The notes under the pieces: model-generated
The model's database searches: none
Seen by the model: only the letters and a program-made list of their open reading frames with translations
What the model was told of the DNA's origin: nothing
Assembly: GCF_988242995.1 (NCBI RefSeq)
Contig: NZ_OZ547043.1
Direction: 5' to 3' (one strand)
Length of the DNA stretch: 64,000 nt
Shown here: in pieces, positions 1-22,757 of the stretch
Position numbering within the stretch: the first letter of the stretch is position 1
Layout: every line of letters begins with the position of its first letter
Made by a program: the position numbers and the translations under genes

Positions 1-2
1 TT

Positions 3-245
<243 letters not shown>

Positions 246-274
246 TCGGTCACGGTCCATTAATACGACTTTGA

Positions 275-736
<462 letters not shown>

Positions 737-761
737 TTCGTTATTCAACGAGACGTAAAAA

Positions 762-788
762 CGCCGACCATTGGTCGGCGTTTTGCTT
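762..788 (+). terminator. Rho-independent terminator after rplI
   Basis: Perfect stem cgccgacc/ggtcggcg with a 3-nt loop followed by TTTTGCTTT. Confidence 0.8.
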
Positions 789-806
789 TCTATTTTTCGT
801 CAGGTA

Positions 807-1601
807 TTAGTTTCGCAAGTAGATCCATTCACCATTCTCCTGTGTCCATAATTCAGGATGGTTTGCTGGCGTTAGATGCATATGATCGCACCTTATGTCT
901 CGGTCCTGTGGCACTCGTTCGAAACCCAAACCCGAGTAGATTGCTGCTGAACTTGATAAGGAACGCAGACCAATTTTCAAATCATGGGGTAAATCAGAAT
1001 ACGCGTTTAGCAATGCAGCAATGATGAATCCGAGGGCATTAGAAACGCCTGTAACAGTGCGAAGTTGGTCGATATAAAGATCGATTGTTGGTAGTTCAGA
1101 TGACCAGCAATTAGGCATTTGGGCAGGAAGGGTTACAACGTATCCTATCGTTTGGCCGGTATAGTCTGGAGTACCATAACCTGGACCCAAAACAACCTCG
1201 TGTATTGTGTATTTACTGTTGGGTTCGAAGGATTCGACATCTTGCAATAAATATTTCAGTTCTGCGGTTAACCTCGCACCCGCGTAAGCTTTATTGTATT
1301 TCTGGGCGTGAATATTATCTAATGTAGCTTCATGGTTCCATCCAAAAGAATTATCACCATTCATTGTTATTCCATCGTAAGTATTACACCTCGTCGCTAA
1401 CTTATTGAATGCTTGCCAGTCTGAGAGATCTAGTTTGTGGATCTCAACAGTATGTCTGCCATCGCAATTATGGTCTCTTCCACGATTTGAAAGTAATGTA
1501 GCGCGTGCGTATTGATGAAATTTTAATTTTACTGGTTTGTCGGTGGACGAAAAACGGGGTGAATATGCAGGAAATGAATAAATAGTTGTTGGTAATGTCA
1601 T
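807..1601 (-). CDS. yjfZ: Uncharacterized protein YjfZ
   Basis: 264-aa ORF in an AT-rich segment at the position expected for yjfZ after rplI; no recognisable domain. Confidence 0.8.
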   Translation of the reverse strand: MTLPTTIYSFPAYSPRFSSTDKPVKLKFHQYARATLLSNRGRDHNCDGRHTVEIHKLDLSDWQAFNKLATRCNTYDGITMNGDNSFGWNHEATLDNIHAQKYNKAYAGARLTAELKYLLQDVESFEPNSKYTIHEVVLGPGYGTPDYTGQTIGYVVTLPAQMPNCWSSELPTIDLYIDQLRTVTGVSNALGFIIAALLNAYSDLPHDLKIGLRSLSSSAAIYSGLGFERVPQDRDIRCDHMHLTPANHPELWTQENGEWIYLRN

Positions 1602-1950
1602 TTTATTGTTGCCTGTTTAATATTTTTACAAATATCGCAGTTGAATGTTCAAAGAAAAAGAGTTGATATTAATAAAAATAAGTTTGTTTTCTGAAGTGGT
1701 GAAAATAGCGGATAGTAAAAGATATTAATATCAAAAATCGCTCATCACGGATATAACGATGCACCCAGGGAGGGAGATGACTGACAACGCCTTACACCAT
1801 ACATTCTTGTTGTGCGGTATGTAATTATTCTACGCTGTCGGTATCGGTGCGTTCGTTAATCAGCAGGTTAACCAGCCACAAAAAGCCATTGAAAAAATCA
1901 TCGATTTTACCTGGGGTTATTATATTGCTAATCCCTGGTTTTTAAAAATT

Positions 1951-2277
1951 TTGCATAGTGAAAACCAAAGTAAAGGTGTGCATTATGCAAAATCACAGCG
2001 TCTCTTAGAAATTAATCATGCGCACTTGCGGTTAATGGAATCCTTATTGGATGAAGGGAAGAAACACAATATTTTTAAGGCAGATAGCGACCCATTGCAG
2101 GTGAATATTAATATTGCTGCGCTTGGGGGATATTATTTGATCAACCAGCATACGCTTGGCCTGGTTTATCATATCAGTATGGTTTCACCCCAGGCACTGG
2201 AAGCCAGACGTAAGGTCATCAAAGAGACGCTCCTTAGCTGGCTTCTGGTTGACCCTTCATCTACCGCGCGCGAATAA
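1951..2277 (+). pseudogene. ytfA: Truncated TetR-family regulator remnant (C-terminal ligand-binding domain only)
   Basis: 108-aa ORF opening at a TTG codon; the same frame stays open upstream to a TAA at 1822-1824 with no ATG, and no N-terminal HTH is encoded. Confidence 0.6.
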
Positions 2278-2899
2278 AACTGCCATCCGGCTGACGGGTA
2301 AACAGGACCTGTTGATTATTCCCCGTATCAATGGTTAAGCCCGTCACCACGCCGCTGGCGTTCTGGCGGATTTTCACCATCTGCCCGTTTTGCAAATTAC
2401 TCAGCGGCTTACCCGCGCCTTCTACCTGCGCCATTGCATAGACATCGGTAGCGGGCAGCCCGTGGTCGCGGAACAGCTGTGCCATCGTTTTACCGGGTTC
2501 GACACGGTAAGAGCGCCATTGATTATCAATTCCGCTATCTGGCTGGAATGGTTGCGTTTGGGGGGGTTGCGGCTGCTCTTCTGGCTGGCCTTCCTGTATT
2601 GGTTCTGGAGCGACCGGAGCCACCTGATCAGGATCATTTTGTGGCGTGACTAATTGCGCCCGCAGCTGTTCTTCTGTCGGCGGTTGTGATTGCGACTGAA
2701 TATCTAACTGCGCTTCACGCGTCACCACCGGCGCGTTGGGCGTATCATCAGATGGAAGCAGAAATCCGACCACCAATACAATGGCGGCAATAATGATCCC
2801 CCGACGATGCATCGGCGGCAGCGGGTCCATGAAGCGAAAATTGTCCGGCGCGTGCCAGACTTTCTCCAGGGTTGGTTTTAGTTCAAAGCGCCCGGGCAT
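2261..2899 (-). CDS. ytfB: OapA/LysM-domain cell division protein YtfB
   Basis: ORF with a proline/glutamine-rich linker and a single transmembrane segment; start taken at MPGRFELKP (212 aa), an upstream ATG at 2935 would give 224 aa. Confidence 0.85.
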
Positions 2900-3116
2900 G
2901 GTTTCCTCCTGCTCCGCGTCTTGTTCCTCAATCATAGCCTATGAATAAGCTAACGCTATGATGTCCGTGGTAAACCCGCCTTTATTATATTCATACGGGA
3001 TATTGCTATTGTTTCTTTTTCCCCGGGATTTGTCATCATTCCCGCGACAAAGTTTTACCCAAAGAAGTGTGGCTGATATGCTGCCCGCTACTTTATACCC
3101 TAAGAAAGGAAATACG

Positions 3117-3737
3117 ATGACCACCCCAACTTTTGACACCATCGAAGCGCAAGCAAGCTACGGCATTGGTTTGCAGGTAGGGCAACAACTGAGTGAATCT
3201 GGCCTGGAAGGGCTGCTGCCAGAAGCACTGGTTGCAGGCATTGCTGATGCGCTGGAAGGCAAACATCCGGCTGTTCCGGTTGATGTGGTGCACCGCGCGC
3301 TGCGTGAAATCCACGAACGCGCCGATGCCGTTCGTCGTCAGCGTTTCCAGGCGATGGCTGCTGAAGGTGTGAAATACCTGGAAGAAAACGCCAAAAAAGA
3401 AGGTGTAAATAGCACCGAATCTGGCCTGCAATTCCGCGTGATCAACCAGGGCGAAGGCGCAATTCCGGCACGTACCGACCGCGTTCGTGTTCATTACACC
3501 GGAAAACTGATCGATGGCACCGTGTTTGACAGCTCCGTCGCTCGCGGCGAGCCAGCTGAATTCCCGGTTAACGGCGTGATCCCTGGCTGGATTGAAGCGC
3601 TGACTCTGATGCCGGTAGGTTCTAAATGGGAACTGACTATCCCGCAGGAACTGGCATATGGCGAGCGTGGCGCAGGCGCGTCCATCCCTCCGTTCAGCAC
3701 CCTGGTGTTTGAAGTCGAACTGCTGGAAATCCTCTAA
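3117..3737 (+). CDS. fklB: FKBP-type peptidyl-prolyl cis-trans isomerase
   Basis: 206-aa product [20 protein letters not shown]... with an FKBP C-terminal domain; internal ATG chosen within the longer track ORF 2958-3737. Confidence 0.93.
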
Positions 3738-4045
3738 GCAGCGCATTCTGTTCCCCTCGAGCCAGAGGGGAGCAGGCATTCAGCAATAAACCCTTCAGTT
3801 TGCCAAACGGCGCTATTTTGTGTTGCAAAGACCGCGTAAGCGTGTATTTTTGTGAGCTGTTTCGCGTTATCACCGTGATATGACACTCACTTTAAACATA
3901 AAATTAACATTAGATCTAAATCTTAGTATTCATCCCGCGTATTGTTACCTAATATCGATGAGTCCCGATACAGATTCGTCGTATCATAGACTGACTAAAG
4001 GCCGTAGAGCCTGAACAACACAGACAGGTACAGGAAGAAAAAAAC

Positions 4046-5458
4046 ATGGTAGATCAGGTAAAAGTCGTTGCCGATGATCAGGCTCCGGCTGAACAGTCGC
4101 TACGGCGCAATCTCACAAACCGACATATTCAGCTTATTGCCATTGGCGGTGCCATTGGTACGGGGTTGTTTATGGGGTCCGGCAAAACGATTAGCCTTGC
4201 CGGGCCGTCGATCATTTTCGTTTATATGATCATCGGTTTTATGCTCTTTTTCGTGATGCGGGCAATGGGGGAATTGCTGCTTTCGAATCTGGAATACAAA
4301 TCTTTTAGTGACTTCGCTTCCGATTTACTCGGGCCGTGGGCAGGATATTTCACCGGCTGGACTTACTGGTTCTGCTGGGTTGTAACCGGTATGGCAGACG
4401 TGGTGGCGATCACGGCTTATGCTCAGTTCTGGTTCCCCGAGCTCTCCGACTGGGTCGCCTCGCTGGCGGTGATAGTGCTGCTGCTGACGCTCAACCTCGC
4501 CACCGTGAAAATGTTCGGTGAGATGGAGTTCTGGTTTGCGATGATCAAAATCGTCGCCATTGTGTCACTGATTGTCGTCGGCCTGGTCATGGTGGCGATG
4601 CACTTTCAGTCACCGACCGGTGTGGAAGCGTCATTCGCGCATTTGTGGAATGATGGCGGCTGGTTCCCGAAAGGTTTAAGTGGCTTCTTTGCCGGATTCC
4701 AGATAGCGGTTTTCGCTTTCGTAGGGATTGAGCTGGTAGGTACAACAGCTGCGGAAACCAAAGACCCTGAGAAATCACTGCCACGCGCGATTAACTCCAT
4801 TCCGATCCGTATCATTATGTTCTACGTCTTCGCGCTGATTGTGATTATGTCCGTGACGCCGTGGAGTTCGGTAGTCCCGGAGAAAAGCCCGTTTGTTGAA
4901 CTGTTCGTGTTGGTGGGTCTGCCTGCTGCCGCCAGCGTGATTAACTTTGTGGTGCTGACCTCTGCCGCTTCTTCCGCTAACAGCGGCGTCTTCTCTACCA
5001 GTCGTATGCTGTTTGGTCTGGCGCAGGAAGGTGTGGCACCGAAAGCGTTCGCTAAACTCTCTAAGCGCGCCGTACCCGCGAAAGGGCTGACCTTCTCCTG
5101 CATCTGCCTGCTCGGCGGCGTGGTGATGCTGTATGTGAATCCCAGCGTGATTGGTGCGTTCACGATGATCACGACCGTTTCCGCGATTCTGTTTATGTTC
5201 GTCTGGACGATTATCCTTTGCTCGTACCTGGTGTATCGCAAACAGCGTCCGCACTTGCATGAGAAATCAATCTACAAGATGCCGCTCGGCAAGCTGATGT
5301 GCTGGGTATGTATGGCATTCTTTGTGTTCGTGGTCGTGCTGCTGACACTGGAAGATGATACCCGCCAGGCGCTGCTGGTTACCCCGCTGTGGTTTATCGC
5401 TCTGGGGCTGGGCTGGTTGTTTATTGGTAAGAAGCGGGCTGCTGAACTGCGGAAATAA
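4046..5458 (+). CDS. cycA: D-serine/D-alanine/glycine:H+ symporter (APC family)
   Basis: 470-aa polytopic membrane protein with the amino-acid permease signature. Confidence 0.95.
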   Translation: MVDQVKVVADDQAPAEQSLRRNLTNRHIQLIAIGGAIGTGLFMGSGKTISLAGPSIIFVYMIIGFMLFFVMRAMGELLLSNLEYKSFSDFASDLLGPWAGYFTGWTYWFCWVVTGMADVVAITAYAQFWFPELSDWVASLAVIVLLLTLNLATVKMFGEMEFWFAMIKIVAIVSLIVVGLVMVAMHFQSPTGVEASFAHLWNDGGWFPKGLSGFFAGFQIAVFAFVGIELVGTTAAETKDPEKSLPRAINSIPIRIIMFYVFALIVIMSVTPWSSVVPEKSPFVELFVLVGLPAAASVINFVVLTSAASSANSGVFSTSRMLFGLAQEGVAPKAFAKLSKRAVPAKGLTFSCICLLGGVVMLYVNPSVIGAFTMITTVSAILFMFVWTIILCSYLVYRKQRPHLHEKSIYKMPLGKLMCWVCMAFFVFVVVLLTLEDDTRQALLVTPLWFIALGLGWLFIGKKRAAELRK

Positions 5459-5470
5459 CCGCATTATCAT

Positions 5471-5499
5471 GCTGGATGGCGCAATGCCATCCAGCTTTT
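5471..5499. terminator. Bidirectional stem-loop between convergent cycA and ytfE
   Basis: Stem gctggatggc/gccatccagc with a 5-nt loop followed by TTTTA. Confidence 0.7.
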
Positions 5500-5502
5500 A
5501 GA

Positions 5503-6165
5503 TCACTCACCCGCCAGTGCGCGCGGGAACAGCACATTATTTTCCAGGCTGATGTGCTCCATCAGGTCATCAATCAGTTCATTAATGCCGTTATACATCG
5601 CTTTCCAGGTGGTGCAGGCTTCCGGCGGCGGTGTGACGTTATTGGTAGTGTGTTTGATTACTTCCAGCAGTTCACCCGCTTCATCGTGCTCGCTTTCCAT
5701 TACGCTGATTGGCCCCATTGCCTGGCTGCCCATGCCTTGTTTGATCATCGGGAAGAGGATCTGCTCTTCTTTCATCATGTGGCTGGAAAGCTCTTCATGC
5801 AGCATAGTCAGGTATTTTGTCAGCCCTTTTGGCACGCTCGGTTTGTCGGCGTGAACGCGTTCGACTTTAGTCGCTTGCAGGATCAGCTCCGGCAGTTGCT
5901 CGCGGTGACGATCGTGGTAGCGCACGATGATATGGTCGATGATTTCTGCCAGCGGGGCGCTACGCCAGTCTTTCTCAATCGGTTGTTCAGCAAGCTTTGC
6001 CAGCTCAGCTTCAATGACCTCAACATCCAGTTCTTTACGTGCCGCCGCACGCGCCAGCGTTTGCTTACCGCCGCAGCAGTAATCCATATCATATTTACGA
6101 AACAGAGCCGAAGCGCGAGGAATAGAGAGCGCCAGTTCACCTAAAGGTTGGTCGCGATAAGCCAT
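5503..6165 (-). CDS. ytfE: Iron-sulfur cluster repair di-iron protein (RIC)
   Basis: 220-aa [36 protein letters not shown]... with a ScdA_N/hemerythrin-like architecture. Confidence 0.95.
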
Positions 6166-6191
6166 AGCTGATACCTCATTCTTAATAAGAT

Positions 6192-6214
6192 AAGATGCAT
6201 TTTAAATGCATCTT
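6192..6214. promoter_or_regulatory. NsrR operator upstream of ytfE
   Basis: Near-perfect palindrome AAGATGCATTTTAAATGCATCTT about 30 bp upstream of the ytfE start, matching the NsrR consensus. Confidence 0.85.
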
Positions 6215-6272
6215 TAAGGCAAAAGCTATAACCCTTACGTAGCAGAGGCTTATTTAACTCACTGCCAGCGTG

Positions 6273-7238
6273 TCAACTTTCTGAGACAGATTCAGTTAAA
6301 GGTTTTTCTGGTTTTGCTCTGACCGCAATGACCACGCCAACCACTAACAGTGCGATACCGCTCAGCGTCATTAGTGGCGGCATTTGCTGGCGTAACAAAA
6401 AGGTGTACAGCAAACCTGCCAGCGTTTCGAAAACAATCAGCGGCCCGAGAATCACTGTCGGTAATCGCTGGCTGGCGACGTTCCAGCAGAGTGCGCCAAC
6501 CCATGAGCAAAGCACGGCTATTGCAATCATCAGACTAATAAACACCAGCGGACGGGGGCCAAAAGGTAGGGAGAAGTCCGGCGTTTGCGTATTCAGCCAG
6601 TAACAAGCGACGAGATAGCCGATAAGCGAAACCGGCAGCGTGACCAGCGCCTGCGCCGTCGCCCACATCATCGGATGTTTGTCGGGATTTTCCCGCAGCC
6701 AGCGGGCGTTGCGCAGGGCATACCATGCCCAGCAGACCACGGAAACTAACGCCAGCACGATGCCAGAGGTATAACGTGCCCAGTCAAAATCGGGGAGTCC
6801 GTGGTTTAACTCAGCAATATTCACACTCGCCAGGCCGATGCCAATACAAATCAGTGCCGGGGCGAGTTTTCCCCACGCGAGTTTGCCGTCGCGCTGGCTA
6901 TAAAGCAGATTGGCAAAGACAGGAATGACCACCGGCAGGGTGCCGATAATCATCGTGGAAACAGGCGCGCCAGTACGTTGAATGGCACTGGCAAGGCAGA
7001 AGTAATAAATGAGGTTGCCCATCATAGTGAGCATCAAGGCGGTAAGCCAGTCGCGACGCGCCAACTGACGCAGACGCACGCGCCCCAGCCAGGCAATGGG
7101 CAGCGCAATTAACCCTAACGCCAGATAACGCCCCATAGACTGCAACATCGCCGGGTATTCCGGCACGATCAACGGCCCGACAAAAATAAGCCCCCACATC
7201 AACCCTGCTAACAGGGCGTACAGCACGCCGCTAATCAT
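6273..7238 (-). CDS. ytfF: EamA/DMT-family inner membrane transporter
   Basis: About 321-aa hydrophobic ORF; start could be 7247 or 7238. Confidence 0.88.
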   Translation of the reverse strand: MISGVLYALLAGLMWGLIFVGPLIVPEYPAMLQSMGRYLALGLIALPIAWLGRVRLRQLARRDWLTALMLTMMGNLIYYFCLASAIQRTGAPVSTMIIGTLPVVIPVFANLLYSQRDGKLAWGKLAPALICIGIGLASVNIAELNHGLPDFDWARYTSGIVLALVSVVCWAWYALRNARWLRENPDKHPMMWATAQALVTLPVSLIGYLVACYWLNTQTPDFSLPFGPRPLVFISLMIAIAVLCSWVGALCWNVASQRLPTVILGPLIVFETLAGLLYTFLLRQQMPPLMTLSGIALLVVGVVIAVRAKPEKPLTESVSES

Positions 7239-7346
7239 TACTGGCATCCATTGGTCTGTCAGAAGAAACGTTCAGGAAGCAGATATGATTGCTCCCGGCA
7301 TCCCGTCATTATCAGAGAGGATGCGGGAGGATGCCACTTTAATTAA

Positions 7347-8207
7347 CTAGTTATTAACATTAAAAAGATGGCTTACGCTTTCGGCTAACGTTGTCGTTGG
7401 GCGGCCAATCAATTTGCTAAGCGTTTTGCTGTTATCAAACAGACCACCTTTCGATGCGCCAACGTCAGAATCCGCCAGCATATCCGCCAGTCCGTCGGGC
7501 AGTCCGACGCTTTTCAGTGCCGCGGCGAAATCGGCTTCGCTCAGATTTTGATAGGTAACGGATTTTCCGCTCTGTTTGGTCAGCTCTGCCGCTAACTGTG
7601 TCAACGTCCAGGCACTATCGCCCGCCAGTTCGTAAACCTTGCCTTCGTGACCGGCTTCGCTAATCACGCGTGCCGCAGCTGCCGCATAATCTGCCCGCGT
7701 TGCTGAGGCGATTTTGCCATCGCCCGCCGCACCGATAAATACGCCGTGTTCCAGTGCTGCCGGGGCGCTGGCGAGGTAGTTTTCGCTGTACCAGCCGTTG
7801 CGCAGCAGGGTGTAAACGATGCCAGAATCAGCCAGCATTTTCTCCGTCTCGATGTGCTCATCGGCGAGGCCGAGCGGGGAGGTATCTGCATGTAGCAGGC
7901 TGGTATAAGCGATAAATTTCACGCCAGCCGCCTTTGCGGCATTAATAACATTACGATGCTGCGGGGCACGTTGACCCACTTCGCTGGAAGAGATCAGCAG
8001 TAGTTTTTCCACTCCCTGAAGTGCAGATGTCAGTGCGGCTTCATCGCCGTAGTCAGCCTGACGCACGGTAATGCCTTGTGCTGTCAGTGCCTGGGCTTTT
8101 GCCGGATTACGAACGATAGCCACTATTTGGCTGGCAGGAACCGTTTTCATCAAGGATTCAATAACATAGTGACCAAGTTGGCCAGAGGCACCAGTAATTG
8201 CGATCAT
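7347..8207 (-). CDS. qorB: NAD(P)H:quinone oxidoreductase (NmrA-like)
   Basis: 286-aa product MIAITGASGQLGHYVIESL... with a Rossmann GxxGxxG motif; internal start chosen within track ORF 7347-8255. Confidence 0.92.
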   Translation of the reverse strand: MIAITGASGQLGHYVIESLMKTVPASQIVAIVRNPAKAQALTAQGITVRQADYGDEAALTSALQGVEKLLLISSSEVGQRAPQHRNVINAAKAAGVKFIAYTSLLHADTSPLGLADEHIETEKMLADSGIVYTLLRNGWYSENYLASAPAALEHGVFIGAAGDGKIASATRADYAAAAARVISEAGHEGKVYELAGDSAWTLTQLAAELTKQSGKSVTYQNLSEADFAAALKSVGLPDGLADMLADSDVGASKGGLFDNSKTLSKLIGRPTTTLAESVSHLFNVNN

Positions 8208-8255
8208 AGGAAGTCTCCATCGTTTTGTCTTGTGTTTAAATACGCTAACACCCAA

Positions 8256-8272
8256 ACTTACTTTTAGTAAGT
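8256..8272. promoter_or_regulatory. Candidate operator in the qorB-ytfH divergent region
   Basis: Inverted repeat ACTTAC-N5-GTAAGT centred in the 88-bp divergent intergenic region. Confidence 0.3.
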
Positions 8273-8295
8273 ACGTACAAAAAGGTAAGTATGAG

Positions 8296-8676
8296 ATGAG
8301 TCAGGTTAGCCTGTCGCAACAACTGAAAGAGGGAAATCTCTTCGCTGAACAGTGTCCGTCGCGCGAGGTTTTGAAACACGTCACCAGCCGTTGGGGGGTG
8401 TTGATTCTGGTGGCGCTACGCGAAGGTACTCATCGCTTTAGCGACCTGCGGCGCAAAATGGGCGGGGTGAGTGAAAAGATGCTTGCGCAGTCGTTACAGG
8501 CGCTAGAGCAGGATGGTTTTCTTAACCGTATCGCGTATCCGGTGGTGCCGCCGCATGTGGAATATAGCCTCACGCCGCTGGGAGAGCAGGTGAGCGAAAA
8601 GGTTGCTGCACTGGCGGACTGGATTGAGTTGAATTTGCCCGAGGTGTTGGCGGTGCGGGATGAACGTGCGGCGTAA
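8296..8676 (+). CDS. ytfH: HxlR-type winged-helix transcriptional regulator
   Basis: 126-aa product MSQVSLSQQLKEGNLFAEQCPSREVLKHVTSRWGVLIL...; HxlR/MarR-like helix-turn-helix. Confidence 0.9.
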   Translation: MSQVSLSQQLKEGNLFAEQCPSREVLKHVTSRWGVLILVALREGTHRFSDLRRKMGGVSEKMLAQSLQALEQDGFLNRIAYPVVPPHVEYSLTPLGEQVSEKVAALADWIELNLPEVLAVRDERAA

Positions 8677-8680
8677 CTGC

Positions 8681-8780
8681 AGGATGCGCGGCCTACGGTG
8701 TATGACTTGTAGGACGGATAAGATGCGCCAGCATCGCATCCGACAAAAGTGTCGGATGCGGTTGATGATTTGTAGGCCGA
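8681..8780. repeat. REP (repetitive extragenic palindromic) elements
   Basis: Multiple GCCTAC/GTAGGC and CGGATGCG/CGCATCCG palindromic units between convergent ytfH and cpdB. Confidence 0.8.
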
Positions 8781-8792
8781 AAAAGAAGTGTA

Positions 8793-10736
8793 TTACTTAC
8801 TCAAATCCACCTGATAAATCGCAAACCCGATATCATCGGTCGCGACTTTATTCATCGGATATTGCCCTTTCTCTTTAATAAACGCCGCGGCTTTATCTGA
8901 TGGAGAGGTTTCGAAACGGATATCCAGTTTCTTATCGCCAGCTATTGGTGCTAAACGCCAGTTGTTATCTGCCGCCGGGTGAATTTCCCCCGCACGTTTC
9001 GACTCATCAGCAATCCACGCTGCCAGCACCGAGCGGTTCTCATCCGGCGAAGCAAAAGCGATATGGCTGTCGCCCGTACCGGCAAATTTGCCGCCGTAAG
9101 CGCGATAGTTATTGGTGGCAACGAGGAACATGGCGTTCGGATCAATCGGCTTGCCGTTAAAGGTCAGGTTCTTAATCCTTTCCGCATTGGCATTAATCAT
9201 CTGGCACTCGCCGTCATAACGGGCGGGTTGGGTAACATCAATCTGATAATTCACACCATCAATAACATCAAAGTTATAGGTGCGGAAACCATCCCAGTTG
9301 ATGAGTGACTGTGGTTTCGTGCTGTTAGGATCAATCTGGTTAAACTGTCCGGCGGAGCACTCCAGCCACTCTTTCACCTCTTTACCGCTGGCTTTCACCA
9401 CAATCAGCGTATTGGGGTAGAGATAAAGATCGGCGGCATTACGGAAGGTCAACTGGCCTTTTTCCACCTCCACATAGCTTGCCGGGTCATTTTTGCGACC
9501 ACCAACTTTAAACGGTGCGGCAGCTGAAAGCACCGGCAGTTTTGCCAGATCCGGATCGCCCTGAATGTAATGCTCGACATACGCTTTTTGCGCGTTGTTC
9601 ACTACCTGCACGGTCGGATCGTCTTGCACTAGCGCCAGATAGCTATACATATTGTCGGCGGATTTACCGATTGGCTTGCTGACGAACTGGCGTGTGGCAT
9701 CGTGATCGGCTTTGAGTGTTTCTACCAGCTTGCTGTCTTCCGCCGCGAGGGATTTTTTATTAGCGATGTCGTAAATCGGTCTTGCTTCCGCTTTCGCCTG
9801 CGTCACCTGCCATTTACCGCTGTCATTACTGAGTTGTAAGTCGACCACACCAAGATGATCGCCCCACATGCCTGGCATTACCGCCGGAACACCATTCAGC
9901 GTGCCTTTCGCGATATCAGCCCCTTCGATATCAGCAAAATCTTTACCTGGGAAAACGGCGTGAGCATGGCCAAACATAATGGCGTTAACGCCCGGAATTT
10001 CACTGAGGTAATAAACTGAGTTTTCCGCCATCACTTTATACGGATCGGCAGACAGCCCGGAATGCGCCAGAACGACAACGACATCGGCACCTTTCTCGCG
10101 CATTTCAGGCACGTATTTGCGCACGGTTTCGGTAATATCATTCACCGTCACTTTCCCGGATAAATTAGCTTTATCCCAGCCCATGATTTGCGGCGGCACG
10201 ACGCCAATATAGCCAATCTTCAGCGTCTGTTTTTTTCCGTCTTTATCGACCACTTCGGTGTCTTTAATTAAATACGGTGTAAACATTGGCTGTTTGGTTC
10301 TGGCGTCAATGACGTTGGCATTTACATAAGGGAATTTCGCTCCCGCCAGCGCATTTTTCAGGTAATCCAGACCGTAGTTAAACTCGTGGTTGCCAAGCGT
10401 GCCGACGGTATAGTCCAGCGTATTTAATGCCTTATAGACCGGGTGAATATCACCTGCTTTTAAACCTTTCGCCGACATGTAATCTGCAAGCGGACTCCCC
10501 TGAATCAAATCGCCGTTATCCACCAGTACGCTGTTTTTCACTTCATTGCGGGCATCGTTAATCAGGCTTGCGGTACGTACCAGTCCGAATTTTTCCGTGG
10601 CGGTGTCTTTGTAATAATCGAAATCCATCATGTTGCTATGCAGATCAGTGGTTTCCATGATACGCAGATCGACCGTCGCTGCATTCACACTGGCGGCAAT
10701 CAGCGTGGCCAGGAGCGTTGCGCTAAACTTAATCAT
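8793..10736 (-). CDS. cpdB: Periplasmic 2',3'-cyclic-nucleotide 2'-phosphodiesterase / 3'-nucleotidase
   Basis: About 647-aa product with signal peptide [19 protein letters not shown] and a calcineurin-like metallophosphoesterase plus 5'-nucleotidase C-terminal domain. Confidence 0.95.
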
Positions 10737-10925
10737 CAGGGACATCCTTTTATCATCGGGAATACGAAAGAAAAGGGAGAATAAACGTCTTACTTATAGA
10801 ACAGTGAAGAATGCCACAATTTTACGCTTTGAAAATGATGACACTATCACAGTTGGCGCATTCATTAACGATAGGGTATAAGTAAAACAATAAGTTAACA
10901 CCGCTCACAGAGACGAGGTGGAGAA

Positions 10926-11666
10926 ATGTTAGATCAAGTATGCCAGCTTGCACGGAATGCAGGCGATGCCATTATGCAGGTCTACGACGGGACGAAACCG
11001 ATGGACGTCGTCAGCAAAGCGGACAATTCTCCGGTAACGGCAGCGGATATTGCCGCACACACCGTTATCATGGACGGTTTACGTACGCTGACACCGGATA
11101 TTCCGGTCCTTTCTGAAGAAGATCCTCCCGGTTGGGAAGTCCGTCAGCACTGGCAGCGTTACTGGCTGGTAGATCCGCTGGATGGTACTAAAGAGTTTAT
11201 TAAACGTAATGGCGAATTCACCGTTAACATTGCGCTCATTGACCATGGAAAACCGATTATAGGCGTGGTGTATGCGCCGGTAATGAACGTAATGTACAGC
11301 GCGGCAGAAGGCAAAGCGTGGAAAGAAGAGTGCGGCGTGCGCAAGCAGATTCAGGTCCGTGATGCGCGCCCGCCACTGGTCGTTATTAGCCGATCCCATG
11401 CAGATGCGGAGCTGAAAGAGTATCTGCAACAGCTTGGCGAACATCAGACCACGTCCATCGGCTCTTCGCTGAAATTCTGCCTGGTGGCGGAAGGGCAGGC
11501 GCAGCTGTACCCGCGCTTCGGACCAACGAATATTTGGGACACCGCCGCTGGACATGCTGTGGCCGCAGCTGCCGGAGCGCACGTTCACGACTGGCAGGGT
11601 AAACCGCTGGATTACACTCCGCGCGAGTCGTTCCTGAATCCGGGATTCAGAGTGTCTATTTACTAA
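10926..11666 (+). CDS. cysQ: 3'(2'),5'-bisphosphate nucleotidase
   Basis: 246-aa ORF with inositol monophosphatase-family motifs ([12 protein letters not shown]). Confidence 0.95.
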
Positions 11667-12878: not shown

Positions 12879-13433
12879 TTATTTGAGCAACTTTTGCAGC
12901 AGGTCCATCACTTGCTGCACCTCTTCCTGTGTGAGCGCCCCGTCTTTGGCCCATTGCACGCGACCGTCTTTATCCAGCACCACTACAGCGGAACTTTCTT
13001 CATCCAGCTGCCAGGCACCGCGCGCGACGCCATTGCTATCGACAATAAACTGCGACCAGGGATAAAGCTTTTTATTACTTTCCAGACTGCTGCGCACAAA
13101 CATGCCGGAACCCGGAATTGCGTCGTCGGTGTTAACAATGGTGGTGGTCTGGTAACGATCGTGCGGTAACTTTGCTGATTTAATCGCTTCAATCAGCGTC
13201 GCGTTTTTCTCTTTTGCAGAGGTGCGACCAGCAATATGTTGCAGTACTCGCACTTTTCCCACTAACTGCGCGCTGTTCCAGGTTTTGTAGCTAAACTGAT
13301 CTTTATCAAGCACCAACTCGCCCCGATCGGTAATGCCAATCGGCGGCACTCGCTGACCGGTTTCGAACTGATGTGCGGAAGCCATCATCGGCAACAGCAG
13401 GCAGGTGAGTGCCAGAATCTTGCGTAGGGTCAT
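12879..13433 (-). CDS. ytfJ: Periplasmic protein YtfJ
   Basis: 184-aa ORF with signal peptide MTLRKILALTCLLLPMMASA. Confidence 0.9.
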   Translation of the reverse strand: MTLRKILALTCLLLPMMASAHQFETGQRVPPIGITDRGELVLDKDQFSYKTWNSAQLVGKVRVLQHIAGRTSAKEKNATLIEAIKSAKLPHDRYQTTTIVNTDDAIPGSGMFVRSSLESNKKLYPWSQFIVDSNGVARGAWQLDEESSAVVVLDKDGRVQWAKDGALTQEEVQQVMDLLQKLLK

Positions 13434-13757
13434 GGTGTTTCCTTCTTATGATATGCAGGTGATCCGACCACTTGGGTCTGAGTTTTAATCATATGTGCTA
13501 TTTATCGAATTTCCCGCAAGTGTGATGCCAGTTTGCGGTCAAGCGCACAAATCATATGAAAAATGAATGCTTATACTGAAGACCGCGCTTCGGTAAAAAG
13601 ATAATTCTGAATAATTGTAACCTTTAGGTAAAAAAAGTTATACGCGGTGGAAACATTGCCCGGATAGTCTATAGTCACTAAGCATTAAAATTTGCGCCTC
13701 ATAATAGTTGGGCCGATTGTGGCACCGCACAGGCGTAATACTCAGCAGGAGATAACA

Positions 13758-13964
13758 ATGAAAATTTTCCAACGATACAACCCACTTCAGGTGGCGAAGT
13801 ACGTAAAGATCCTGTTCCGTGGACGGTTATACATCAAGGACGTTGGCGCTTTTGAATTTGATAAGGGTAAGATTCTTATCCCAAAAGTGAAGGATAAGCT
13901 GCATTTGTCAGTGATGTCCGAAGTTAACCGTCAGGTTATGCGTCTGCAAACAGAGATGGCTTAA
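13758..13964 (+). CDS. ytfK: Small protein YtfK
   Basis: 68-aa product [34 protein letters not shown]... with a GAGA Shine-Dalgarno; internal ATG chosen within track ORF 13692-13964. Confidence 0.9.
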
Positions 13965-13991
13965 CCAAAGTGCTATGCAGTAAATAAATAT

Positions 13992-14015
13992 CCTCCGGCA
14001 TAGCCGGAGGTTTTT
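13992..14015 (+). terminator. Rho-independent terminator after ytfK
   Basis: Stem cctccggc/gccggagg with a 3-nt loop followed by TTTTT. Confidence 0.85.
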
Positions 14016-14016
14016 C

Positions 14017-14735
14017 AAATGCGCCTGTAAGGCTCTGTTACCAGCCGCGCCCTAACAGGCGCATACGATCTGACATTTGCATTCAACTTCGTTACTTACG
14101 GCCCGTAAACGGGCTGCCCGGATATGGAATCGATAACTGCTCCCCCATTTTATCCTCTTCAAGCTGGTGCTTTATGTAGTCACGTATCTTCGCCGTGTTC
14201 TTACCCACCGTATCGACATAGTACCCTCGGCACCAGAACTCCCTGTTTCTGTATTTGAATTTCAAATCCCCAAACTGCTCGTAAAGCATCAGACTGCTTT
14301 TCCCTTTCAGATATCCCATAAAGCCGGATACGCTCATTTTGGGTGGGATTTCCACAAGCATATGGATATGATCTGCGCAGCACTCTGCTTCCAGAATCCG
14401 TACGCTTTTCCACTCACACAGCTTTCTCAAAATACTGCCTATCGCCCTACGCTTCTCTCCGTAAAACGCCAGTCTTCGGTATTTCGGCGCAAAAACTATG
14501 TGATATTTACAGTTCCAGCGGGTGTGCGCTAAGCTCTTTTCGTCCCCCATTGGGACCCCCTTTTGATTTCTTGTTTGACACTTGCAGTTGCCAGACCGCA
14601 AGGTGTTTTAACAAATCAAAAGGGGTTTTAATAACTGGCTCAAAGCTGAAAGCTTTCCGGAACCCCCAGCCTAGCTGGGGGTTTTCTGTGCACAATAAGA
14701 CGGCTCCTGATTCAGGAGCCGTTGATGTTTCTGGG
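14017..14735 (-). mobile_element. IS200-like insertion sequence (IS200/IS605 family); boundaries approximate
   Basis: About 0.7 kb unit carrying a single HUH Y1 transposase, subterminal hairpins at both ends and no terminal inverted repeats, lying between ytfK and ytfL. Confidence 0.8.
14092..14550 (-). CDS. tnpA: IS200-family Y1 (HUH) transposase TnpA
   Basis: 152-aa product MGDEKSLAHTRWNCKYHIVFAPKYRR...HIHMLVEIPPK...SPFTGRK with the HUH motif; RBS sequestered in an upstream hairpin. Confidence 0.92.
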   Translation of the reverse strand: MGDEKSLAHTRWNCKYHIVFAPKYRRLAFYGEKRRAIGSILRKLCEWKSVRILEAECCADHIHMLVEIPPKMSVSGFMGYLKGKSSLMLYEQFGDLKFKYRNREFWCRGYYVDTVGKNTAKIRDYIKHQLEEDKMGEQLSIPYPGSPFTGRK

Positions 14736-14737
14736 GG

Positions 14738-16081
14738 TTACGCGACGCTTTCTTCTTTATCTTTAGCATCAGGCAATTTTGGCGAAAGGGCGGTGGCCTT
14801 GCTGTCGATTCGGGTCACCAGCAGCTGGTCGATGCGGTAGTTATCGATATCCACCACTTCAAATTTGTAGCCGGCGAATTTCACCGAATCGGTGCGTTTC
14901 GGGATCTTACGCAGCATAAACATCATAAAGCCGCCGATGGTTTCGTAGTTGCCCGACTGCGGGAACTCGTCAATATCCAGCACGCGCATGACGTCGTCAA
15001 TCGGAGTGCCGCCGTCAATCAGCCATGAGTTCTCATCACGGGCGACAATCTGCTCTTCCAGCCCCTGACCGACCAGATCGCCCATCAGCGTGGTCATCAC
15101 GTCGTTGAGGGTGATGATCCCCACTACCAGCGCGTACTCGTTCATGATCACCGCGAAGTCTTCACCTGCGGTTTTAAAACTTTCCAACGCCTCTGAAAGG
15201 GTTAACGTATCCGGCACAATCAGCGTGTTGCGAATTTGTACGCCGCTGTTCAGTGCCAGGCTTTGGTTAGCCAGCACGCGGTTCAGCAGGTCTTTAGAAT
15301 CGACATAGCCGATGATGTGGTCAATATCTTCATTACAGACGAGGAACTTAGAGTGCGGATGTTCCGCCACCTTATTCTTCAGACTTTGCTCATCTTCGTG
15401 GAGATCAAACCAAATCACGTTTTCACGCGGTGTCATTGACGACGGAACGGTACGGGATTCCAGCTCAAAGACGTTTTCAATCAGCTCGTGTTCCTGTTTA
15501 CGTAACACGCCCGCCAGCGCACCGGCTTCCACTACCGCGTAGATGTCATCAGAAGTGATGTCATCTTTACGTACCATTGGCAGTTTGAAAATACGGAAGA
15601 TCATGTTCGCCAGGCCGTTGAAGAACCACACCAGCGGGGTGCAAACGTACAGGCAGAAGCGCATCGGGTTGATGATACGCAAAGCCACTGCTTCTGGCGC
15701 AATCATACCGATGCGTTTCGGGGTTAAATCCGCAAACAGGATAAACATGCCAGTCACTAACGAGAAAGAGAGAATAAAGCTCAGTTGCTCAGAGAGTTCT
15801 GCCGACATATAGCGGGAGAACAGGCTGTGAAAAGCTGGAGAAAATGCCGCATCACCGACGATACCGCCGAGAATCGCCACTGCGTTCAGACCGATTTGGA
15901 CCACGGTAAAGAACATGCCGGGATTTTCCTGCATATTCAGAACGCGTTGGGCATTTATATTGCCTTCATCAGCCAGCAGTTTAAGTTTGATTTTGCGTGA
16001 GGCCGCAAGCGAGATCTCGGACATCGAGAAGAACGCACTTACAGCGATCAAGCAGAGTATGACTAAAATACTGTTTAACAT
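14738..16081 (-). CDS. ytfL: CNNM/CorC-family inner membrane protein (DUF21-CBS-CorC_HlyC)
   Basis: 447-aa ORF with an N-terminal membrane domain followed by CBS pair and CorC/HlyC transporter-associated domain. Confidence 0.93.
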   Translation of the reverse strand: MLNSILVILCLIAVSAFFSMSEISLAASRKIKLKLLADEGNINAQRVLNMQENPGMFFTVVQIGLNAVAILGGIVGDAAFSPAFHSLFSRYMSAELSEQLSFILSFSLVTGMFILFADLTPKRIGMIAPEAVALRIINPMRFCLYVCTPLVWFFNGLANMIFRIFKLPMVRKDDITSDDIYAVVEAGALAGVLRKQEHELIENVFELESRTVPSSMTPRENVIWFDLHEDEQSLKNKVAEHPHSKFLVCNEDIDHIIGYVDSKDLLNRVLANQSLALNSGVQIRNTLIVPDTLTLSEALESFKTAGEDFAVIMNEYALVVGIITLNDVMTTLMGDLVGQGLEEQIVARDENSWLIDGGTPIDDVMRVLDIDEFPQSGNYETIGGFMMFMLRKIPKRTDSVKFAGYKFEVVDIDNYRIDQLLVTRIDSKATALSPKLPDAKDKEESVA

Positions 16082-16257
16082 ATCTTATCCGACCTTTCAG
16101 GCCAGATCCTCGGAAGGGGAAGTTGATTAATTTGTGTGAAATACACATTGAAAGCCGATTCGAAGAAAGTGAACCGGCATTTTCAGTGGCTAGTATAGCG
16201 TAAGGTACTGTAAAGCCGCCAGAGGGTTAAAATTCAGACTGCTGATAAATGCAAAAC

Positions 16258-16365
16258 TGCCTGATGCGCTATGCCGATCAGGCCTACGCAGTCCCCACAA
16301 TATATTGATTTTGGACGATTTTGTAGGCCTGGCAAGGCGTTTACGCCGCATCCGGCATAGACAAA
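16258..16365. repeat. REP elements
   Basis: GCCTGATGCG...GATCAGGCCTAC and CGCATCCGGC palindromic units between ytfL and msrA. Confidence 0.8.
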
Positions 16366-16403
16366 TAGCACTTTATCAACAATCTACATTTGTACCCGTA
16401 ACG

Positions 16404-17042
16404 CTATGCTTCCGGCGGCAGACAGACGCCAATTCCGCCAATTCCACAGTAACCATACGGGTTTTTATGCAGATATTGCTGGTGGTCATCTTCGGCATAA
16501 TAAAACGGTGTGGCGTTCGCGATTTCCGTGGTGATGTGACGATCGTCATCGGCGGCAAGCATCGCCGCCTGAAAACGTTCCAGACTGGCGCGAGCTGCGG
16601 CATCCTGTTCTGGGGTCAGCGGATAAATCGCTGAACGATACTGCGTGCCGTGGTCATTGCCCTGACGCATTCCCTGGGCGGGATCGTGATTCTCCCAAAA
16701 TACTTGTAGCAACTGTTCATAGCTGATGACGGAAGGATCGTAAACAATGCGTACCGCTTCGGCATGACCCGTATCACCGGAGCACACTTCCCGATAAGTC
16801 GGATTTGGCGTATAGCCGCCGGTATAGCCTGCGGCGGTGCTGTAAACGCCGGGTAACTGCCAGAACAGTCGCTCCACACCCCAGAAACAACCCATCGCAA
16901 AAATGGCAATCTCCATTCCGTCAGGTACATTGGTCATTGAGTGACCGTTGACCGCATGCAGCGTGGCTACGGGCATCGGGGTGTTACGTCCAGGCAGGGC
17001 ATCGGCGGGGGAAACCAGATGCTTTTTATCAAATAAACTCAT
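16404..17042 (-). CDS. msrA: Peptide methionine sulfoxide reductase A
   Basis: 212-aa product [16 protein letters not shown]... with the GCFWG active-site motif; internal start chosen within track ORF 16404-17108. Confidence 0.95.
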
Positions 17043-17205
17043 GGTGTCGCTCTCCCGAAAATCGGTCATTGGGGTTAAGGTTGTAACAAGAGGCGTATTT
17101 GCACACAATAACCACCGTGAATAGGTCTAAAGTAAAACATAAGAAATATTTGGGGTTTAGTCTGCTTTTTAATCCATATTACTGGATTTTTGTTAAGCCG
17201 TTTAA

Positions 17206-22757
<5,552 letters not shown>

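Follow-up and report, generated by a model that had tools for sequence, protein, structure and literature searches.

An open reading frame (ORF) known as ytfA lies between yjfZ and ytfB in the window, the 64,000-nucleotide stretch of DNA analyzed here. A first-pass annotation made from the sequence alone described it as a decayed TetR-family regulator that lacks its DNA-binding domain. The locus raises the question of whether a regulator can still be made here and, if not, what the gene once was, how it was disabled, and what it would have controlled. The gene order is rpsR (positions 18–245), rplI (287–736), yjfZ (807–1601, minus strand), the ORF under study (1951–2277, plus strand), and ytfB (2261–2935, minus strand), followed by fklB and cycA. 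The window is E. coli DNA. Across positions 1400–2500, it is 99.2% identical to an O158:H23 strain of E. coli and 95.2% identical to MG1655; the window allele is not that of K-12. From the sequence comparisons described below, it is very likely that positions 1876–2277 are a nonfunctional ytfA remnant of a 215-amino acid TetR/AcrR repressor and that two deletions produced it.

Domain content of the open frame

The 108-amino acid ORF is a mechanical call from the ORF list, and its TTG start and coordinates (1951–2277, plus strand) held when rechecked. The frame does stay open upstream to a TAA at 1822–1824 without an ATG, as had been noted, and the 42 codons in between (1825–1950) contain no GTG or TTG either. 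With the ORF alone, the Pfam TetR_C_29 profile gave a match at E = 4e-18 in which profile coverage begins at position 27, so the ORF lacks the first 25 residues of the domain. With the translation of 1825–2274, the same profile (PF17938) gave E = 1e-27 and covered profile positions 1–118 of 119, matched on 1876–2229. A tblastn search of the window with an intact homologue placed amino acids 83–215 on 1876–2277 (E = 1e-85, 94–95% identity). The match to the TetR family is far beyond chance. The pseudogene proper, as delimited by tblastn, Pfam, and PGAP coordinates, thus consists of codons 83–215 and the stop codon of a 215-amino acid TetR/AcrR regulator (1876–2277, plus strand), and it holds a complete TetR_C_29 ligand-binding/dimerization domain without an N-terminal domain.

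The upstream open frame had been read as encoding more TetR C-terminal-like sequence. This is true of 1876–1950. By blastn and tblastn decomposition of the window, however, 1825–1874 is a fragment of a reductase gene in antisense, so the TAA at 1822–1824 and the 17 codons that follow it belong to that fragment and not to a TetR gene. The absence of a helix-turn-helix (HTH) was confirmed: the Pfam TetR_N profile (PF00440) did not match the translations of 1645–2277 or 1825–2274, and Pfam and tblastn found no TetR_N or HTH match in any frame of window positions 1–3000. The first possible start codon, the TTG at 1951, corresponds to an internal valine codon (Val108) of the ancestral gene, which reads GTG in all nine other alleles compared. 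No Shine–Dalgarno-like sequence is visible on direct reading of the bases in front of it (...TTTTTAAAAATT-TTG), and a promoter scan returned no plus-strand promoter-like site upstream of 1951.

An intact regulator at the same site in other strains

At the same site, E. coli ws5-3 carries an intact 215-amino acid TetR/AcrR gene (WP_001299246.1) that shares 17 bp with the 3′ end of ytfB. Pfam places TetR_N at amino acids 19–61 of this protein and TetR_C_29 at amino acids 83–201. The gene is called ytfA in ETEC H10407, and the B-lineage strain BLR(DE3) matches its 5′ region at 100% identity. Of 5,426 complete E. coli genomes, 3,143 (~58%) contain the 5′ portion of the regulator together with the promoter region.

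The comparison across enterobacteria that the first-pass annotation had proposed was carried out and yielded intact 215-amino acid orthologues in E. coli and four other species, the non-coli ones turning up when species-representative genomes were scanned. In E. whittamii, Klebsiella spallanzanii (89% amino acid identity), and Entomohabitans teleogrylli (81%), the arrangement runs from rplI to ytfB with an MFS transporter. An E. albertii contig carries the same operon, regulator, and ytfB and ends before the transporter and rplI. In the species-representative scan, only Escherichia and two further genera of enterobacteria had the regulator; after these, the best relatives were alphaproteobacterial proteins of ~38% identity.

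The window copy and WP_001299246.1 are alike over amino acids 83–215 (94–95% identity), in position, and in the 17-bp overlap with ytfB. Amino acids 1–82 with TetR_N, the start codon, the divergent promoter, a palindrome, a CRP site, and a six-gene operon are found only with WP_001299246.1. A PDB sequence search with the regulator returned only uncharacterized TetR structures, the closest being 3npi, of uncharacterized function. TetR_C_29-type repressors of this sort share their C-terminal family with the window copy, while their two-domain architecture and divergent regulator/operon layout are those of the intact orthologue; the window copy differs from them in lacking the DNA-binding half. 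Of the elements that make up a functional TetR/AcrR regulator, the window copy retains the C-terminal ligand-binding/dimerization domain. It has no HTH domain, no complete frame that has a start codon and a ribosome-binding site of its own (codons 1–82 are deleted), and no palindromic operator or regulated neighbor in the window. Both marks of a pseudogene, a full-length homologue that is intact in other genomes and a disabling lesion, are found here.

Two deletions removed the operon and the DNA-binding half

The breakpoints could be located with the help of a haplotype, referred to here as haplotype C, in which yjfZ and the intact island occur together. In strain ChlosBP-23-1 (locus L006), the order is rplI, yjfZ, MFS transporter, FAD oxidoreductase, CoA transferase, hydratase, TIM barrel protein, SDR protein, divergent TetR gene, and ytfB. 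Blastn of the window against this locus gave three collinear pieces with overlapping ends. Window positions 1550–1793, which comprise the 5′ end of yjfZ and its upstream region (the intergenic region between yjfZ and the MFS gene), match L006 12760–13006 at 89% identity. Positions 1787–1879 match 20329–20422, inside the SDR gene in antisense, at 85% identity (E = 9e-25). Positions 1875–2300 match 20959–21384, the TetR gene from codon 83, at 95% identity.

The first overlap (1787–1793) is the junction of a 7,322-bp deletion that removed the MFS transporter, most of the SDR gene, and all that lay between them, and it carries a parental microhomology, ACGC(C/G)TT. The second (1875–1879) is the junction of a 536-bp deletion with the parental microhomology (CC)GCCAC; this deletion took the 5′ end of the SDR gene, the divergent region that holds the promoter, operator, and CRP site, and TetR codons 1–82. 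What remains between the junctions is an 88-bp SDR fragment (1787–1874, minus strand; blastn, tblastn) that encodes amino acids ~31–58 of the product of the operon's first gene. With the reductase as the tblastn query, amino acids 31–58 aligned to window positions 1869–1786 on the minus strand (E = 1e-8) with two in-frame stops. In window positions 1–3000, tblastn found nothing for the MFS protein or for TetR amino acids 1–82 (best E about 0.3).

A different origin of the defect would be an HTH that still lies upstream of the ORF and is broken by a frameshift or nonsense mutation. From an ATG at 1645, the frame reads KEKELILIKISLFSE...ITDIT...G...ALHHTF, which with two TAA codons read through would give a gene of ~210 codons. 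This stretch is superficially like a TetR N-terminus and is in the same frame as the ORF, and between 1645 and 1875 that frame has two stops, far fewer than either of the other frames. When the stretch was compared with the true N-terminus, however, BLASTP gave nothing at E ≤ 100, and TetR_N did not match at E ≤ 10. The bases are otherwise accounted for, as the 5′ end and upstream region of yjfZ and, beyond them, antisense SDR sequence, and K-12 has 1-bp and 2-bp indels within the stretch. BLASTP, Pfam, tblastn, and the homology to yjfZ upstream and antisense SDR sequence together refute 1645–1822 as an in-frame, nonsense-interrupted HTH, and we give the idea of a disrupted upstream HTH practically no credence. 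The first-pass annotation had suggested a search for a frameshifted N-terminal HTH with a full-length homologue. None was found, since amino acids 1–82 are deleted, and BLASTP, Pfam, and tblastn likewise detected no intact in-frame HTH with a valid start codon, the discovery that was to have overturned its reading. A remnant of a TetR-family gene without the DNA-binding domain is borne out by Pfam, tblastn, and the PGAP pseudogene call. The description of the gene as decayed is right insofar as it is a remnant, but the HTH was lost by deletion of codons 1–82 and not by gradual decay or a frameshift.

The same scar is widespread. The K-12 sequence runs collinear with that of the window across both junctions, and K-12 ytfA (b4205) shares with the window the synteny rplI–yjfZ–ytfA–ytfB–fklB and the 108-codon ORF. 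The window allele differs by ~4.5% nucleotide divergence and by a TTG start where K-12 has GTG. As counted in separate BLAST summaries, a query that spans the junctions detected the remnant haplotype, to which the K-12 derivatives belong, in 2,226 of the 5,426 complete genomes, and the haplotype with both yjfZ and the island was found in 290.

These comparisons give the history of the locus. The ancestral Escherichia order was rplI, transporter, FAD oxidoreductase, CoA transferase, enoyl-CoA hydratase, TIM-barrel enzyme, SDR, divergent TetR gene, and ytfB, with the regulator presumably repressing the divergent operon through a palindrome, GATCAACCATCTGGTTGGTTGA, beside a CRP site. An AT-rich yjfZ module of ~1 kb was then inserted after the rplI terminator. 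Two microhomology-mediated deletions, one of 7,322 bp and one of 536 bp, came next, with the loss of the operon, the promoter/operator, and TetR codons 1–82; they left the 88-bp antisense SDR scrap fused to TetR codon 83, with the HTH (amino acids 19–61) gone. In some lineages, IS609 insertion, a frameshift, or the loss of yjfZ came later. Decomposition of the window into its parental pieces shows this order, from island to yjfZ insertion to the two deletions. Without an HTH, operator, target operon, native start, or evident ribosome-binding site, the remnant is expected to be inert as a regulator. It would now drift neutrally, its last 17 bp persisting as part of ytfB.

The yjfZ module and the question of horizontal origin

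The yjfZ module (795–1786, minus strand) consists of yjfZ (DUF2686, 807–1601) and the AT-rich region upstream of it (1602–1786), and it sits between the rplI terminator and the island. It accompanies the intact island in haplotype C and is absent from E. whittamii and from E. coli with the TRAP-type island, ws5-3 among them. The first-pass annotation had noted that the remnant adjoins AT-rich yjfZ and might be part of an old, horizontally acquired patch. A horizontal origin is plausible for both, as yjfZ and the TetR island each have a GC content of ~40%, compared with 50.7% for the window, and as the regulator has the narrow distribution described above. The yjfZ module does not belong to the TetR island, however; it is a separate insertion of ~1 kb that predates the deletions.

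Of the 5,426 complete E. coli genomes, fewer than half (2,538) have the module. A 2024 paper used yjfZ as a "conserved signature" qPCR target for E. coli and Shigella (PMC11057252); such an assay would miss strains with the TRAP-island haplotype.

In Escherichia sp. E1V33 (locus L013, 9700–10400), the same two junctions are present, the equivalent of window positions 795–1638, including yjfZ, is missing, and the remnant is frameshifted. This locus shows the same scar after further decay, in an Escherichia lineage outside E. coli.

Substitutions and secondary lesions in the remnant

To describe how the remnant has changed, dN/dS was calculated by the Nei–Gojobori method over codons 83–215. Intact alleles gave values of 0.02–0.10 among themselves. 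Closely related remnants gave 0.79 (window and O158), 0.69 (window and PK8261), and 1.04 (O158 and PK8261), all from small substitution counts. Between the window and O158, six of eight changes are nonsynonymous; small as these counts are, this has P = 5e-4 under omega = 0.06 and fits neutrality well. Substitutions between closely related remnant alleles thus look neutral. Five derived amino acid changes are specific to the window lineage (V108L, Q134R, P151A, I153S, and I201L), the first of which creates the TTG "start" of the window ORF, and D96G is common to the window and O158 alleles.

The K-12 remnant equals the intact ws5-3 allele in all amino acids from 83 to 215, with only three synonymous differences. 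Taken alone, this identity would look like constraint, but recombination with intact alleles or a recent deletion may instead account for it. The window remnant, at a dS of about 0.15, is also more distant from the K-12 remnant than the intact ws5-3 allele is, despite the deletion junctions that the two remnants have in common; the closeness of K-12 to ws5-3 may reflect recombination on the ytfB side.

The remnant is also a site of insertion. In one class of genomes, all four sampled members carry an IS609/IS200–IS605 element, with tnpA and the gene for an RNA-guided TnpB/InsQ protein, in the remnant at the equivalent of window position ~2170 (L003 3788–5500; L007 3921–5627; L087; L088). The window and K-12 have no IS609 in the remnant. 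By subtraction of 481 uninterrupted copies from the 2,226 remnants, ~1,700 complete genomes may carry an insertion sequence there.

Possible residual roles

A pseudogene that encodes an essentially complete C-terminal Pfam domain, and whose K-12 allele shows no amino acid change from an intact allele, might still be expressed. Translation from the TTG or GTG codon would give a ligand-binding/dimerization protein of ~12 kDa with a residual role, such as a ligand sink or a partner of another TetR protein. Two further observations could be taken in its favor. Genomic SELEX with RpoD revealed a promoter-like (sigma-70) site in K-12 that faces ytfA and lies in the spacer between yjfZ and ytfA, to which H-NS binds (PMC3946193), and targeting of ytfA in a CRISPRi screen altered the expression of dapE and bssS (bioRxiv 10.64898/2025.12.20.695731). 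However, the 108-amino acid ORF is short of the first 25 residues of the domain, and the codon at 1951 is merely the ancestral Val108, with neither a Shine–Dalgarno sequence nor, in our promoter scan, a plus-strand promoter-like site before it. The substitutions of the window lineage look neutral, about 1,700 genomes (by subtraction) may have an insertion sequence in the remnant, and one lineage has a frameshift. The CRISPRi effect may instead act through ytfB, the overlapping, convergent cell-division gene (PMC3614548). Residual expression of this kind consequently appears very unlikely to us. The more specific proposal, in which an H-NS-silenced promoter in the spacer would yield a DNA-binding-deficient, ligand-binding protein with a physiological effect, has at best a slim chance of being right. 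If it were true, such a protein could explain both the CRISPRi signature and the unchanged K-12 amino acid sequence.

The remnant could also be retained for a role in cis, as the 3′ coding end and transcript 3′ end of ytfB, rather than being simply undeleted. The cell-division gene ytfB (2261–2935, minus strand) is convergent with the remnant, whose 3′ end it overlaps with its last 17 bp. This overlap occurs in every haplotype, the loci with an intact regulator included, and the 100 bp nearest to ytfB are untouched by both deletions and by the insertion sequence at ~2170. A need in cis is demonstrable for the last 17 bp only, however, and the insertion at ~2170 indicates that most of the remnant is dispensable. 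A terminator scan found no convincing minus-strand terminator downstream of the ytfB stop. We therefore regard retention for a cis-acting role as improbable, and a nonfunctional remnant of the TetR/AcrR repressor as the better reading. The sole hairpin that is terminator-like, with a T-rich tail (2297–2283, minus strand), lies inside the last ytfB codons, just upstream of the stop.

The lost operon and its probable operator

In ws5-3, the operon divergent from the regulator encodes an SDR "3-ketoacyl-ACP reductase," a xylose-isomerase-like TIM-barrel protein, an enoyl-CoA hydratase, a FadX-like CoA transferase, a 693-amino acid FAD oxidoreductase, and a TRAP transporter, and it ends at rplI. 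The six-gene operon, with either a TRAP or an MFS transporter module, occupies 1227–11010 of locus L005 and 13082–21361 of locus L006 (ChlosBP-23-1), is missing from the window, and adjoins the 5′ end of the regulator in the sampled strains of the 3,143-genome class. The operon is ~7 kb long and probably has a catabolic function. As to which, NCBIfam and Pfam yield generic family names only, a PDB sequence search with the FAD oxidoreductase gave no match at E ≤ 1e-10, and a literature search on the operon with its flanking genes returned nothing relevant.

The intergenic region between the SDR and TetR genes contains a perfect palindrome, ATCAACCA-N6-TGGTTGAT, that is, GATCAACCATCTGGTTGGTTGA (2611–2634 of the ws5-3 locus L004, intact haplotype). 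It is invariant in eight intact loci and is kept in those of Klebsiella spallanzanii and Entomohabitans although the intergenic flanks have diverged. The TGATCAC core of an adjoining CRP site is also invariant across the same eight loci. In ws5-3, the CRP site is TGTGATCACTATCGCA, identical to the motif reported beneath a CRP ChIP-seq peak next to ytfA in ETEC H10407 (PMC4287617). The conservation and position of the palindrome suggest that it is probably the YtfA operator. A search of the whole 64-kb window with up to three mismatches found no copy of it and hence no relocated operator. K-12 lost both the regulator and the operon, and the CRP-associated operon deserves study more than the remnant does.

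Public annotation of ytfA

RefSeq/PGAP calls the gene a TetR/AcrR pseudogene with a "missing N-terminus" in both O158:H23 and K-12, and the O158:H23 coordinates map exactly to window positions 1876–2277. K-12 ytfA was termed a pseudogene in a 2025 preprint, and according to a 2019 survey (PMC6790063), ytfA belongs to the TetR family and occurs in some E. coli strains but not in others. As RefSeq and recent literature flag ytfA, its pseudogene status is already known in substance. The remnant is an ordinary, already annotated pseudogene; the original reading of it is correct and the mechanism is refined. What is new here are the exact breakpoints, the antisense reductase part of the open frame, the internal-valine "start," the sequence in which the events took place, and the recognition of the operon that was lost, with its probable operator. 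Because the HTH is deleted rather than frameshifted, ytfA should be left out of any tally of E. coli transcription factors.

Annotation of a different kind concerns a 1,283-bp contig labeled "MAG: Collinsella sp." (locus L026), which carries rplI–yjfZ–ytfA of E. coli at 99–100% amino acid identity and is almost certainly a binning contaminant.
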